Shown here in pieces: positions 1 through 6,628 of a stretch of 6,628 nt of DNA. Positions within the stretch are counted from its first letter, which is position 1; each line of letters begins with the position of its first letter. The notes beneath the pieces are model-generated. The model saw only the letters and a program-made list of their open reading frames with translations, searched no databases and was not told the DNA's origin. Made by a program: the position numbers and the translations under genes. The DNA comes from a virus (Duplodnaviria > Heunggongvirae > Uroviricota > Caudoviricetes). The DNA is taken from IMG/VR virus record IMGVR_UViG_2603880148_000010; one strand, 5' to 3'.

Positions 1-155
1 CACCGACGTAGCCCCACTGTTCGTCCATTTCCGCGCAGACGATGACGTCACTGCCCGGCTGTATGCGCGAGGTTACCGACTGCGGCCTGAGTTTTTTAAA
101 TGGCGGAAAATCGTGTTGAGGCCAACGCCCATAATGCGGGCGGTTGCCCGGCATC
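1..155 (-). CDS. insB: IS1 transposase InsB reading frame (5' part only; 3' end beyond window start); normally expressed as the InsAB' fusion by -1 frameshifting
   Basis: Minus-strand frame translates from ATG at 153-155 as [16 protein letters not shown]... and continues without a stop to position 1. It overlaps the insA 3' end in the -1 frame at the A6C slippery motif. Confidence 0.85.
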
Positions 156-348
156 CAACGCCATTCATGGCCATATCAATGATTTTCTGGTGCGTACCGG
201 GTTGAGAAGCGGTGTAAGTGAACTGCAGTTGCCATGTTTTACGGCAGTGAGAGCAGAGATAGCGCTGATGTCCGGCAGTGCTTTTGCCGTTACGCACCAC
301 CCCGTCAGTAGCTGAACAGGAGGGACAGCTGATAGAAACAGAAGCCAC
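73..348 (-). CDS. insA: IS1 InsA (transposition repressor / N-terminal part of the InsAB' transposase), 91 aa
   Basis: ORF translation [43 protein letters not shown]...[11 protein letters not shown] is the canonical InsA, with a CxxC...CxxC zinc finger and helix-turn-helix; TAA stop at 73-75. Confidence 0.93.
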
Positions 349-380
349 TGGAGCACCTCAAAAACACCATCATACACTAA

Positions 381-403
381 ATCAGTAAGTTGGCAGCATC
401 ACC
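381..403. repeat. IS1 terminal inverted repeat (insA-proximal end, IRL); element/chromosome junction at 403|404
   Basis: Minus-strand sequence GGTGATGCTGCCAACTTACTGAT ends exactly where the ynfA reading frame resumes. Confidence 0.85.
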
Positions 404-2118: not shown

Positions 2119-3138
2119 ATGAAAAGCATTTTAATTGAAAAACCGAATCAACTGTCGATTATCGAACGTGAAATACCCACCCCGTCAGCGGGTGAAGTAC
2201 GAGTAAAAGTGAAACTTGCCGGAATTTGTGGTTCAGATAGCCATATTTACCGTGGGCATAATCCTTTTGCGAAATATCCGCGCGTCATTGGTCATGAATT
2301 CTTTGGCGTCATTGATGCGGTGGGTGAAGGTGTGGAAAGCGCCAGAGTCGGTGAACGCGTTGCTGTCGATCCAGTGGTCAGCTGTGGGCATTGCTATCCG
2401 TGCTCTATAGGTAAGCCGAACGTTTGTACGACACTTGCTGTATTAGGTGTGCACGCTGACGGTGGTTTCAGTGAATATGCCGTGGTTCCGGCAAAAAATG
2501 CGTGGAAAATTCCTGAAGCAGTGGCCGATCAATATGCGGTGATGATCGAACCTTTTACCATTGCGGCTAACGTTACCGGTCATGGTCAACCGACTGAAAA
2601 TGATACCGTTCTGGTTTATGGTGCCGGTCCAATCGGCCTGACGATCGTTCAGGTATTAAAAGGCGTCTATAACGTTAAAAATGTGATTGTTGCCGATCGC
2701 ATTGATGAACGACTGGAAAAAGCGAAAGAGAGCGGGGCTGACTGGGCGATTAATAACAGCCAGACACCGCTTGGCGAGATTTTCACTGAAAAAGGCATCA
2801 AGCCGACATTAATTATCGATGCGGCTTGTCATCCTTCTATCCTGAAAGAGGCCGTAACGCTGGCTTCTCCAGCGGCACGTATTGTATTGATGGGCTTCTC
2901 CAGTGAACCGTCTGAAGTGATTCAGCAAGGAATTACCGGAAAAGAACTCTCTATTTTCTCTTCACGCTTAAATGCAAATAAATTCCCGGTCGTTATCGAC
3001 TGGTTAAGTAAAGGGTTAATTAAACCAGAAAAATTAATTACCCATACGTTTGATTTCCAGCATGTTGCTGATGCCATTAGTTTATTTGAACAGGATCAAA
3101 AACATTGCTGCAAAGTCTTACTCACTTTTTCTGAATAA
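2119..3138 (+). CDS. rspB: RspB, zinc-dependent medium-chain alcohol/sugar-acid dehydrogenase family protein (339 aa)
   Basis: Translation from ATG 2119 (MKSILIEKPNQLSIIEREIPTPSAGEVRVKVKLAGICGSDSHIYRGHNPF...) with a strong SD AAGGAGTAAGG just upstream. It carries MDR hallmarks: catalytic-zinc motif CGSDSH, GHE motif (VIGHEFFGV), structural-zinc Cys cluster CGHCYPCSIGKPNVC, and a Rossmann GxGxxG (VYGAGPIGL). It starts 12 nt after the rspA stop, so the two form an operon. Confidence 0.93.
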   Translation: MKSILIEKPNQLSIIEREIPTPSAGEVRVKVKLAGICGSDSHIYRGHNPFAKYPRVIGHEFFGVIDAVGEGVESARVGERVAVDPVVSCGHCYPCSIGKPNVCTTLAVLGVHADGGFSEYAVVPAKNAWKIPEAVADQYAVMIEPFTIAANVTGHGQPTENDTVLVYGAGPIGLTIVQVLKGVYNVKNVIVADRIDERLEKAKESGADWAINNSQTPLGEIFTEKGIKPTLIIDAACHPSILKEAVTLASPAARIVLMGFSSEPSEVIQQGITGKELSIFSSRLNANKFPVVIDWLSKGLIKPEKLITHTFDFQHVADAISLFEQDQKHCCKVLLTFSE

Positions 3139-3151
3139 TACCAATAACGGC

Positions 3152-3182
3152 GAGTAAGTAGTACGCATCTTACCTCTTTTTT
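3152..3182 (+). terminator. Weak candidate intrinsic terminator downstream of rspB
   Basis: A short stem GTAAG (3154-3158) / CTTAC (3169-3173) with a 10-nt loop is followed by CTCTTTTTT (3174-3182). The stem is only 5 bp and AT-rich, so this is tentative. Confidence 0.2.
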
Positions 3183-3195
3183 AGAGATAACCATT

Positions 3196-3306
3196 ATGAC
3201 AATAGAAAAACACGAAAGAAGCACTAAGGATTTGGTGAAAGCAGCAGTATCGGGATGGCTGGGCACTGCGCTTGAATTTATGGATTTCAAGAGTCATGCG
3301 TGTTAA
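3196..3306 (+). pseudogene. ydfJ: Orphan 36-codon ORF resembling the N-terminus of a metabolite:H+ symporter (MHS)-type MFS transporter; probable 5' remnant of a gene split by prophage integration
   Basis: ATG 3196 translates as MTIEKHERSTKDLVKAAVSGWLGTALEFMDFKSHAC*. The AxxG-x-L-x-E-(W/F)-x-DF segment is the conserved N-terminal motif of ProP/KgtP/ShiA-type transporters, and the frame stops 5 codons later, right at the AT-rich prophage edge. Naming it ydfJ rests on my recollection that the reference K-12 genome has ydfJ split by the Qin prophage next to rspB; this is unverified here. Confidence 0.55.
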
Positions 3307-3325
3307 CTATTTGATAAATATTAAA

Positions 3326-4606
3326 TTAATTTTTCATTGCTTCGTTATGGGGCATGGTTGGGGCAAACTCGCTTAACTGTGTATTTAACAAAGCTACCTG
3401 TGCATTATTGTTTTCAGACATCCATTTTCCGTATACCTGAAATACCATTTGCGCATCTGCATGGCCCATCTGGTTTGCTATAAATGCCGGGTTAGCACCA
3501 GCTGTCAGCGACCAGCAGGCATAAGTATGTCTCGACTGATATGATTTTCGATGGCGGAGTCCGGCACGTTTTATCGCTGCGTCCCACATCTGCCTTATTG
3601 AGTCAACGGTAAAATGGTCACCATAATTTTTTACTCTCGCTGACACTTCAGGTTGAAAAACAAAGGTGCATTTTTGTTTTTCTGTTCTGCCATACTCTCT
3701 GAGGTGAACATCAATGATATGCTCTTTGCTCAGTCTCGTTAATGTCATCTGACTCCGGAGAGCGTCGATTGCTGGCTTAATAAGATGAATGACCCGATTG
3801 GTTCCCGCCTGTGTTTTTGGTACCGTGAAACGGTCTTTTGCTAAATTTCTCCTGATCATCATTGTTCCATTTTTCAGATCTATGTCCTCCCATCCAAGTG
3901 CACACAGCTCACCAGGGCGAACGCCAGTATAAACAGAAACACACCATAAATTTTTTGCTTGCTGATTTCTGCACGCATCGATAAGACGGATAAATTCCTC
4001 CCGCGAAAGAGGATCCGGAATGGTTCTTGATTCCTTTAATGGCGAGATCCCCTTAAACGGGTTATCTGCCAGGTAACCGTTATCAACACCAAACTGGAAC
4101 ACGGCGTTAAGATTTGTCATGTAATTATTTACAGTTACAGCCGATCTCCCTGGTTGTGTAACAATATAGTTACTTTTGGGGATCTGGTATCCAGTCAGTA
4201 GCTCTTTACGAACCTCCAGTAATTTTTCTTTATTAATCGATGAGGCAAGATTTTTTTCACCGATTATGCTCAGGATATTTTTGATGACGGCACGGTATGT
4301 GTTGAGTGATGTTTTTGCGACTTCAGTTTCTTTCAGTGCCAGAAATTTTTCAGCCAGTTCTTTTATGGTTAAATCTTGTCGGGCCTCACCAAATTTTTCC
4401 AGATTGCGTGAGGAGGGAAACTGTTTTGCATAGTCGAAAACACCAGTTTTTATTGCGTAACAAACAGAGGCGCGTAGCTCACCTGCAACGCGCCTGTTTT
4501 TTGCTGTGTCAGGAACCCCCAGGTTTTCCCTGACTCTTACGCCTTTATAAACAAACCAGATACGTAATTTCCCTCCATGGTTTTCCACGCCTGTCGGATA
4601 TTTCAT
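3326..4606 (-). CDS. Phage integrase, tyrosine site-specific recombinase (about 426 aa)
   Basis: Long minus-strand ORF with tyrosine-recombinase box I (TGVRPGELCALGWEDID) and box II (SRHTYACWSLTAGANPAFIANQMGHADAQMVFQVYGKW), giving an R...H-x-x-R...Y catalytic set. I prefer the ATG at 4606 (MKYPTGVENHGGKLRIWF..., preceded by purine-rich GAGAGAAG) over the ORF-track start at 4621, which has no SD. It sits at the prophage edge next to the host junction. Confidence 0.92.
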   Translation of the reverse strand: MKYPTGVENHGGKLRIWFVYKGVRVRENLGVPDTAKNRRVAGELRASVCYAIKTGVFDYAKQFPSSRNLEKFGEARQDLTIKELAEKFLALKETEVAKTSLNTYRAVIKNILSIIGEKNLASSINKEKLLEVRKELLTGYQIPKSNYIVTQPGRSAVTVNNYMTNLNAVFQFGVDNGYLADNPFKGISPLKESRTIPDPLSREEFIRLIDACRNQQAKNLWCVSVYTGVRPGELCALGWEDIDLKNGTMMIRRNLAKDRFTVPKTQAGTNRVIHLIKPAIDALRSQMTLTRLSKEHIIDVHLREYGRTEKQKCTFVFQPEVSARVKNYGDHFTVDSIRQMWDAAIKRAGLRHRKSYQSRHTYACWSLTAGANPAFIANQMGHADAQMVFQVYGKWMSENNNAQVALLNTQLSEFAPTMPHNEAMKN

Positions 4607-4964: not shown

Positions 4965-6628
4965 TTAAGAATCAGCCTGACTCGGGATCAGTTTTTGCCA
5001 GATAGCTGAAACGTATTTTGCCTGGTAACGGGCGTCATCAAGTGCATTATGGCGCTCACCTTCGAATGGAATAGCCGTTCTGGCATCGAAGTCTATGGCT
5101 TTCCCCAGCTCAACGATTGTGCGTACATCGCGATCGTTGTAGTAACGCCACGGGCAGGGGATTCCCTGCCGTTCGTATGAACGGCGCAAAATCGTGTTGT
5201 CGAAGTTGGCTCCATTTCCCCAGACATGAACAAAAAATTCACCGGAGTTTTCGTCGATAAATTCCCGCAATTGTAACAGTGCATCATCTAACGGGATTTC
5301 ATCGGTCATAATGGCAGATTGCGCTTCGCGTGATTGCTTAAGCCACCATTTAATGGTGTCCCGATCAATGACTCCGCCAGCAGTTTCCAGATCGATAGTC
5401 TTACTAAATTCCGGTCCCATATCTCCGGTTTGCGGATCGAAAAATATTGCACCTATTGAGATGATCGGGGCATCAGGATTTTTTCCCATGGTTTCAAGGT
5501 CGATCATTAGATGGTCACACGTCCTGCTGGTGGATGTGATTTCGTGATGACCGTTCACCTTAATTGAGTGATCTGCCGTCTCGCCAGTTTCATTATCGCT
5601 ATTGTGATGCTGATTGCCGCCAGTGTTCTCCTTGTGCTGATGCGCAGTGCCTTCCATTTCCTCCGGATCATTTTCCTGAACTTCAGGCTGATTCTCTCCA
5701 TCGAATATTTCCTGGTATGTTGCGTCACCCATCACCGCACCACAATCAGGGCAGTTGCCGCCACCGCTATGACCGCAGGCGGTGCAGATCTTTTCCGGTT
5801 CCTGTTGCACTACTGGTTCAGGTTGTTTCGTTTCTGGCTCGTTTTGTTGCGTATTTGGGCTGTTTTGTTCCGCTTTCTGGTCGTTCTGTTCCGTTTCTTG
5901 CTGGTTCTGGTTCACAGAATCGCGGGTCTGGATCCCCTTAACCCATTTCGGATCATTCGGGTCGCTAATCCCTTCAACAAATTCACCACGTGATACTGCA
6001 AGCAGTTCATCGGCGTCAGGCTGGCTGATATTGGCTGCCTGCATAATTTTGTTTACTTCGTCAGCGGTAACTTTTACTGACCCTGGTTGTGCGGTCGTGT
6101 CAGATGCACCAGTATTTTGTTGTGAACCTGAGTATGTACCGTTTTTGCGGGCGAAATATTCTTCTTTCGTGATTTCAGTAGCCCCAGCAGACAGCGCCTT
6201 ATCCAGACCAGAAAGTTTGTTTGCGCGACCGTATTTTTCGCCATCCTTGTCGGTGAAGAGGAAGTAGAACGGCCCCTCACGTTCTACAGATGGTTCGACT
6301 TCCACTTTGCATTCGGTTTTTTCGTTGTCTGGAATTGCCGTTTCCACTGCATCAGTTTCTGGTACTGGCGACGAGAGAGTATCAGTTGCGCTCTGATTTG
6401 TTCCTTCATCTTCAAACACGCCCTTTGTAGTCAGGTATTCAGTAATGTATTTGTTCAGTGCCACAGGGTCTTTGTGAATGTCGATCGGACGTTCACGGAC
6501 AAGGCCAAAAATAGTCTGGCGGTCGTAGCGAAGGGCATCAGGCTGTTTGCGCATTGATGCCGAGATACGCTTCCAGTCTTCGCGGTCGTTGTCGATAACT
6601 TCATTTTTTGCCCAGCGATGGATGCTGC
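4965..6628 (-). CDS. Large prophage protein (5'-partial; >553 aa visible) with a C-terminal DnaQ-like DEDDh 3'-5' exonuclease domain, a CxxC-x7-CxxC zinc-ribbon-like motif, a His-rich tract and a Q/E/N-rich repeat linker
   Basis: The minus-strand ORF stops at TAA 4965-4967. The frame stays open upstream of the ORF-track ATG (6554) to the window edge (...SIHRWAKNEVIDNDREDWKRISAS-MRKQPD...) and no SD precedes 6554, so the true start is outside the window. The C-terminal ~180 aa carry the three DEDDh motifs: Exo I MIDLETMG, Exo II VWGNGANFDNT, Exo III HNALDDARY. Confidence 0.8.
   Translation of the reverse strand, partial: SIHRWAKNEVIDNDREDWKRISASMRKQPDALRYDRQTIFGLVRERPIDIHKDPVALNKYITEYLTTKGVFEDEGTNQSATDTLSSPVPETDAVETAIPDNEKTECKVEVEPSVEREGPFYFLFTDKDGEKYGRANKLSGLDKALSAGATEITKEEYFARKNGTYSGSQQNTGASDTTAQPGSVKVTADEVNKIMQAANISQPDADELLAVSRGEFVEGISDPNDPKWVKGIQTRDSVNQNQQETEQNDQKAEQNSPNTQQNEPETKQPEPVVQQEPEKICTACGHSGGGNCPDCGAVMGDATYQEIFDGENQPEVQENDPEEMEGTAHQHKENTGGNQHHNSDNETGETADHSIKVNGHHEITSTSRTCDHLMIDLETMGKNPDAPIISIGAIFFDPQTGDMGPEFSKTIDLETAGGVIDRDTIKWWLKQSREAQSAIMTDEIPLDDALLQLREFIDENSGEFFVHVWGNGANFDNTILRRSYERQGIPCPWRYYNDRDVRTIVELGKAIDFDARTAIPFEGERHNALDDARYQAKYVSAIWQKLIPSQADS
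5822..5913. repeat. About 4.5 imperfect 21-bp tandem repeats inside the exonuclease CDS (in-frame heptapeptide repeats)
   Basis: Plus-strand units GTTGTTTCGTTTCTGGCTC / GTTTTGTTGCGTATTTGGGCT / GTTTTGTTCCGCTTTCTGGTC / GTTCTGTTCCGTTTCTTGCTG / GTTCTGGTTC... encode (minus strand) ...QQETEQN-DQKAEQN-SPNTQQN-EPETKQP... Confidence 0.7.

Follow-up and report, generated by a model that had tools for sequence, protein, structure and literature searches.

Integrase-proximal junction of a Qin/mEp460-type lambdoid prophage in ydfJ and the chimeric open reading frame ynfP

Results

Gene content of the window and the unoccupied ydfJ locus

The window, by which we mean the whole 6,628-nucleotide stretch of DNA analysed here, carries in order a partial IS1, an IS1-truncated ynfA, rspA, rspB, a short open reading frame (ORF), and then an integrase (int), an excisionase (xis) and an exonuclease gene, the last three on the minus strand (Table 1). 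The partial IS1 occupies window positions 1-403, with insA at 73-348 on the minus strand and the terminal inverted repeat ending at 403. This element sits in ynfA near codon 15, and only the 3' part of the gene remains adjoining it (404-687); the contiguous IS1::ynfA junction was found in 0 of 5426 complete E. coli genomes.

At a prophage-free site, such as that of CFSAN061761, the same DNA runs on into an uninterrupted 455-aa ydfJ ('MHS family MFS transporter YdfJ') and then into ydfI. The identity between the window and this unoccupied locus is perfect from rspB to base 3288, and the two sequences are unrelated from base 3289. The initial annotation had placed the prophage edge inside the 5' end of an MFS transporter gene rather than in a tRNA, and had proposed a comparison with an unoccupied site; that comparison bears out the placement and identifies the gene as ydfJ. 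The intact 455-aa YdfJ of the unoccupied strain passes the TIGR00883 model ('metabolite/H+ symporter') with 462.9 bits against a curated cutoff of 443.45, and also matches Pfam MFS_1, in agreement with its assignment to the MHS family.

Table 1. Features in and around the junction, in window coordinates
Feature	Coordinates	Strand	Basis or remarks
rspB, Zn-dependent oxidoreductase, directly upstream of ydfJ	2119..3138	+	RefSeq annotation of the identical sequence in K-12 and other genomes
rspB-ydfJ spacer, 57 bp, host DNA	3139..3195	+	Identical to the unoccupied locus
ynfP, chimeric ORF	3196..3306	+	ydfJ codons 1-31 (3196-3288), then five phage codons and TAA (3289-3306)
att site, attL (BOP' type), TGAATTTATGGATTTCAAG	3273..3291	.	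Four-way comparison of attP, attB, attL and attR
Non-coding part of the phage P' arm	3289..3325	.	Matches mEp460_ev081 attP past the core, with few single-base differences
Candidate IHF site, TATCAAATAGTTA	3304-3316	-	Consensus match only
Two candidate arm-type Int-binding motifs, TGGGGCA, 11 bp spacing	3348-3354, 3359-3365	+	Inside the 3' coding end of int
Tyrosine integrase (int), intact, 426 aa, convergent with ynfP	3326..4606	-	Pfam domains, mEp460 comparison
Excisionase (xis), 83 aa	4641..4892	-	Pfam DUF1233 putative excisionase, 1.6e-31
Prophage exonuclease gene, 3' part	4965..6628	-	Pfam Rv2179c-like 3'-5' exonuclease domain, 2.6e-67

A consensus scan of both strands between 2900 and 3500 identified no sigma-70-like promoter, either in the rspB-ydfJ spacer or elsewhere in that interval, and no terminator-like site. 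A literature search on the function of the rspB/ydfI cluster (gulonate) returned nothing usable, and we make no claim about the substrate.

The short ORF is a chimera of ydfJ and phage DNA

The short ORF on the plus strand begins with ATG and encodes a 36-aa product, MTIEKHERSTKDLVKAAVSGWLGTALEFMDFKSHAC. Residues 1-31 are exactly residues 1-31 of YdfJ (pairwise comparison, 31/35 identities, E 9e-21), and the five remaining codons, KSHAC, are phage-derived and are followed by a TAA stop at 3304-3306. The composition is thus the one proposed in the initial annotation, a transporter N-terminus with five further codons. Full-length members of the MHS family (TIGR00883, TC 2.A.1.6) have about 400-450 aa, and the 36-aa peptide matched no Pfam or NCBIfam model because it is too short; its identity was therefore set by comparison with full-length YdfJ.

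The interval 3139-3330 (192 bp) is 100% identical to positions 1652704-1652895 of K-12 MG1655 (NC_000913.3), which are annotated as ynfP (b4534, 'protein YnfP'), the cryptic prophage Qin and the intQ pseudogene; the ORF and the junction are therefore not chance features. The peptide is the small protein YnfP, with the same sequence and in the same context between rspB and int. As judged from its sequence, the 36-codon ORF is the already annotated ynfP, a fragment of an MHS-family transporter gene and not itself a member of the family.

The phage-derived tail of the ORF varies with the phage arm that supplies it. It reads KSHAC before the stop in the window and in K-12, KSHTCQLFDKY with an mEp460-type arm and also in Escherichia ruysiae, and is predicted to read KSHSI in a second attP subtype. 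This lack of conservation argues that ynfP is a by-product of integration and not a selected gene. The length of the ORF is set by a single C/T difference within window positions 3298-3306, compared with about 1510-1545 of the mEp460 locus L007, where CAA (mEp460 and E. ruysiae) gives 42 aa and TAA (window and K-12) gives 36 aa; lysogens of mEp460 would accordingly make the longer chimeric product.

The attachment site and the position of strand exchange

Comparison of the four attachment sites delimits the recombined segment. These are attB from CFSAN061761, gcgctTGAATTTATGGATTTCcagttatatt; attL from the window, gcgctTGAATTTATGGATTTCaagagtcatg; attR from K-12 and LR-06, acctgTGAATT-ATGGATTTCcagttatatt; and attP from the free phage mEp460_ev081, acctgTGAATT-ATGGATTTCaagagtcata. 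All four have in common an exact 11-bp core, TTATGGATTTC, at window positions 3278-3288, which lies within an extended att sequence of 18/19 bp, TGAATT(T)ATGGATTTCNAG, at 3273-3291, where one base of difference in the T-run and one mismatch are allowed. This is also the length of the '18- or 19-bp att sequence' that Nakamura et al. (2021, PMC8112680, S7 Fig legend) derived from attP, attL, attR and attB for the prophages in ydfJ (PPydfJ). The presence of the core in both attL and attR provides the short direct repeat that had been expected at the two prophage ends. Its predicted position, 3285-3325, meets the actual att site only at the right-hand edge of the site, and the remainder of that interval, 3292-3325, is DNA of the P' arm.

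The attL of the window combines the T-run of attB with the base that follows the core in attP, and attR displays the reverse combination. A reciprocal exchange within ATGGATTTC (3280-3288) predicts exactly such a pattern. From this switch between attL and attR, strand exchange must fall within ATGGATTTC, as far as aligned sequences can place it; the exact crossover bases would lie somewhere in this segment. The K-12 Qin boundary is annotated at the base equivalent to window position 3289.

Compared with window positions 3274 onward, the uninterrupted attP of mEp460_ev081 gives the same sequence from the core rightward, with a few single-base differences; its left arm is equal to the phage-derived part of the attR found in K-12 and LR-06. 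Contiguous attP sequences are also present in four IMG/VR contigs.

An intact recombination module adjoins the junction

The int gene lies 37 nt from the core. Its product has an Arm-DNA-bind_2 domain (PF12167, residues 4-67, 5.5e-24) and a Phage_integrase domain (PF00589, residues 201-392, 3.9e-18), and so has the lambda-type (heterobivalent) layout of an N-terminal arm-DNA-binding domain with a C-terminal tyrosine-recombinase catalytic domain. Solved integrases are only distantly similar to this protein, the best being Tn1549 Int (E 3.9e-9); alignment to the latter assigns the catalytic residues as R230, K264, R359, H382 and Y392. Position 356 is a tyrosine (Y356xxR359) where Tn1549 Int and many tyrosine recombinases have the first histidine of the HxxR motif; Tyr356 is also present in mEp460 Int. 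The integrases of the window and of mEp460_ev081 differ at 2 of 426 residues (301 and 311), and the two excisionases are identical.

The exonuclease ORF was listed as 529 aa from position 6554. Its frame stays open to the right end of the window (6628), and its relatives have 823 aa, so the gene is cut by the window edge and is not truncated. While the intact int and xis genes suggest that the prophage in the window may still excise and restore ydfJ, this competence is deduced from those two genes only.

The DNA between the core and int is AT-rich, with a GC content of 24% at 3289-3325 against 47% for the window, and 19 nt separate the ynfP stop from the int stop (3326-3328, minus strand). Both observations match the initial description of an AT-rich edge in which the ORF ends about 20 bp before the integrase stop.

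The att arms also contain putative protein-binding sites, of which the arm-type and IHF sites are candidates only. The IHF pattern has a single match in the 4.6-kb mEp460 locus, at +26 relative to the core, and the second attP subtype has it at +26 as well. All four matches of TGGGRCA in the 4.6-kb mEp460 locus (L007, with pairs at 1353-1370 and 1560-1577) fall in the att arms, at -137, -126, +70 and +81, and the offsets of the pairs are conserved in two attP subtypes; this motif was picked post hoc, after the repeats had been seen, and the sites are to be read as leads. A possible secondary core site, a 21-nt core-like repeat in the 3' end of int (window 3396-3416, ACCTGTGCATTATTGTTTTCA) that agrees with the attP core region at 18/21 positions, was dropped as probably incidental, since it is not kept within five mismatches in the second attP subtype. 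The same 21-nt repeat is also present in E. ruysiae.

The far end of the prophage

The remainder of the transporter gene had been predicted at the opposite prophage boundary, and this is where two genomes that share the junction have it. LR-06, whose attL is the same and whose int is intact, has a 'ydfJ ... missing N-terminus' and then ydfI at the distal prophage end; the far end of the K-12 prophage likewise carries the 3' part of ydfJ and then ydfI. Met29 of YdfJ is encoded by the ATG within the core. Two codons before this methionine, attR has an in-frame TGA, and the distal ydfJ fragment can therefore start at Met29 at the earliest. Ramisetty and Sudhakari (PMC6379469) describe for ydfJ the loss of the promoter and truncation by 28 codons. 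The fragment that starts at Met29 is annotated inconsistently, as a 427-aa CDS in K-12 (locus L003, 2003-3286) and as a PGAP pseudogene 'missing N-terminus' in LR-06 (locus L006, 4034-5317).

The far end of the prophage in the window lies outside the 6.6 kb analysed. It would be expected to read ...ACACCTGTGAATTATGGATTTCCAGTTATATTCGC..., followed by ydfJ codons 32-455 and ydfI, and excision would reconstitute attB as GCGCTTGAATTTATGGATTTCCAGTTATATT.

Distribution of the occupied and unoccupied sites

Across 5426 complete E. coli genomes, the uninterrupted attB was present in 2010, the window-type attL in 2706 and the matching attR in 3186. About 37% of the genomes thus have an intact ydfJ and hence no ynfP ORF. 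The same attL is also present in the diverged ydfJ of E. ruysiae. Together with the attP sequences in IMG/VR, these counts indicate that ydfJ is a very common and long-recognised integration site of lambdoid phages.

Two database matches carry labels outside Escherichia. Contig JAGZPX010000007.1 (L012, 286-305), from a metagenome-assembled genome (MAG) labelled Veillonella parvula, carries the 5' end of E. coli ydfJ fused to an mEp460-type P' arm; it carries an E. coli attL and looks like a mis-binned Escherichia contig. A 20-mer match in a Parachlamydiales MAG (L013) was rejected as chance, as its flanks are unrelated on either side and a search of 596 Gb, both strands included, would be expected to give about one such match by chance.

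Discussion

The window interval 3139-3330 is almost certainly the integrase-proximal junction (attL, BOP') of a Qin/mEp460-type lambdoid prophage inserted in ydfJ. We propose that the phage entered codons 26-32 of ydfJ by site-specific recombination, in which its lambda-type tyrosine integrase would have recombined the phage attP with the 18/19-bp look-alike inside the gene. This event would have split ydfJ in two. The first 31 codons stay beside rspB and are read five codons into the AT-rich P' arm before the stop, producing the 36-aa ORF, while the remainder of the gene, from Met29, would be placed at the far prophage end by ydfI, without its upstream region. We infer that YdfJ function is lost.

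The explanation that stands up best beside this one, and that is compatible with a junction origin, is that ynfP is a selected small-protein gene with a function of its own, for example in recovery from nitrogen starvation. The 36-aa sequence is listed in Table 1 of VanOrsdel et al. (2018, PMC6001520) among the small proteins of K-12 that were detected in tagged form. In addition, ynfP is among the genes upregulated in long-term nitrogen starvation, and a delta-ynfP strain had a longer lag on recovery from 24 h of nitrogen starvation (bioRxiv 2020.03.30.016519). This phenotype has n=2 and comes from a kan-marked deletion beside rspB and int, where polar effects are possible; the authors of the same study call YnfP 'a small, possibly fragmented, protein'. 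The three different phage-derived tails, the identity of the host-derived 31 residues with merely the first part of a transporter N-terminus, and the absence of the ORF wherever ydfJ is intact all argue against a selected gene, and we consider a dedicated function unlikely.

The detection of tagged YnfP in K-12 also bears on the proposal that the fragment may still be expressed from the native promoter. Expression of the fragment is supported by this detection; as for the promoter, the lack of a sigma-70-like match in 2900-3500 suggests that transcription may start at the rspAB promoter farther upstream and that the 'native promoter' may not be one belonging to ydfJ itself. A more speculative extension, to which we attach a low probability, is that the split of ydfJ is not neutral debris, and that transcription and translation from the rspAB side run on across attL, where no terminator-like site was identified; this would yield YnfP as well as a transcript antisense to the int 3' end, and each of these products could have been co-opted.

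The two remaining explanations are refuted by the comparative data. An independent, conserved small gene that happens to resemble MFS N-termini, with the prophage in the adjoining intergenic region, would fit the ATG of ynfP and its separate CDS in the K-12 annotation, and is nonetheless extremely improbable: the 93 nt in question make up codons 1-31 of the 455-aa ydfJ in unoccupied strains, at 100% nucleotide identity that includes the upstream spacer, and the missing remainder of ydfJ is found at the other prophage end in K-12 and LR-06. An origin of the junction by IS-mediated or illegitimate rearrangement or deletion, for which the region offers IS1 at the left end of the window and copies of IS1, IS2 or IS66 in related prophages, has a vanishingly small probability, as there is no IS end at 3289, the breakpoints agree to the base with an attP that is uninterrupted in free phages and in IMG/VR contigs, the core is repeated at the two ends of the prophage, and thousands of genomes, as well as E. 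ruysiae, share the junction.

The prophage Qin of K-12 has the same ynfP as the window, the same prophage edge (window 3289), the same rspA-rspB flank, and the 3' part of ydfJ with ydfI at its other end. In Qin, however, IS2E interrupts intQ, which is a pseudogene, and the exonuclease gene is represented by the ydfE pseudogene; the window has int and xis undamaged and an open exonuclease frame. K-12 also lacks the IS1 that the window has in ynfA. The phages mEp460_ev081 (LR597641.1), HannyBb, Tritos and PhiR42_1 carry int-xis modules that are 99.4-99.6% identical to that of the window, although these are free phage genomes and not prophage junctions. As described, mEp460_ev081 is a functional temperate phage that carries dicB/dicF/dicA/rem genes resembling those of Qin.

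Nakamura et al. (2021, PMC8112680) report many strains, K-12 among them, in which ydfJ is occupied by phages. The PPydfJ prophages and clusters of STEC/EPEC that are covered there use ydfJ as the same chromosomal integration locus as the prophage in the window; they are reported to have T3SS effector loci, tandem clusters and secondary attB sites, while no such cargo is visible in the window. Integration inside an ORF and not a tRNA is likewise site-specific in e14 (in icd) and Rac (in ttcA) of K-12. The Fig 4 legend of PMC6379469 places e14 at the 3' end of icd, with a 163-bp icd' segment left in duplicate, and states that Rac changes the TtcA N-terminus alone. In ydfJ the phage provides no replacement N-terminus, and ydfJ loses 28 codons together with its upstream region.

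The system also resembles that of phage lambda in the arm-binding and catalytic domains of Int, and in gene order: int adjoins attP, its transcription runs toward attP, and xis follows. The likeness would extend to the candidate paired arm motifs on both arms and to the IHF-consensus match located between core and P' motifs. The attB of lambda is intergenic (gal-bio), and in window-type phages the P' arm-motif candidates lie within the int coding sequence, which is a further difference from lambda.

The K-12 reference genome already annotates the junction, the split ydfJ and the small ORF, all of which are also published, and the present reading of them is correct but ordinary. For annotation, it means that ydfJ should be described as prophage-disrupted, that the 36-aa ORF is ynfP, and that the exact att site is 3273-3291. 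If the less probable co-option of read-through were true, YnfP would serve in starvation recovery, or the read-through would act as a host-signal-dependent brake on integrase expression and excision. Unlike K-12 Qin, the prophage in the window keeps an int and an xis that hardly differ from the genes of a phage reported to be functional.
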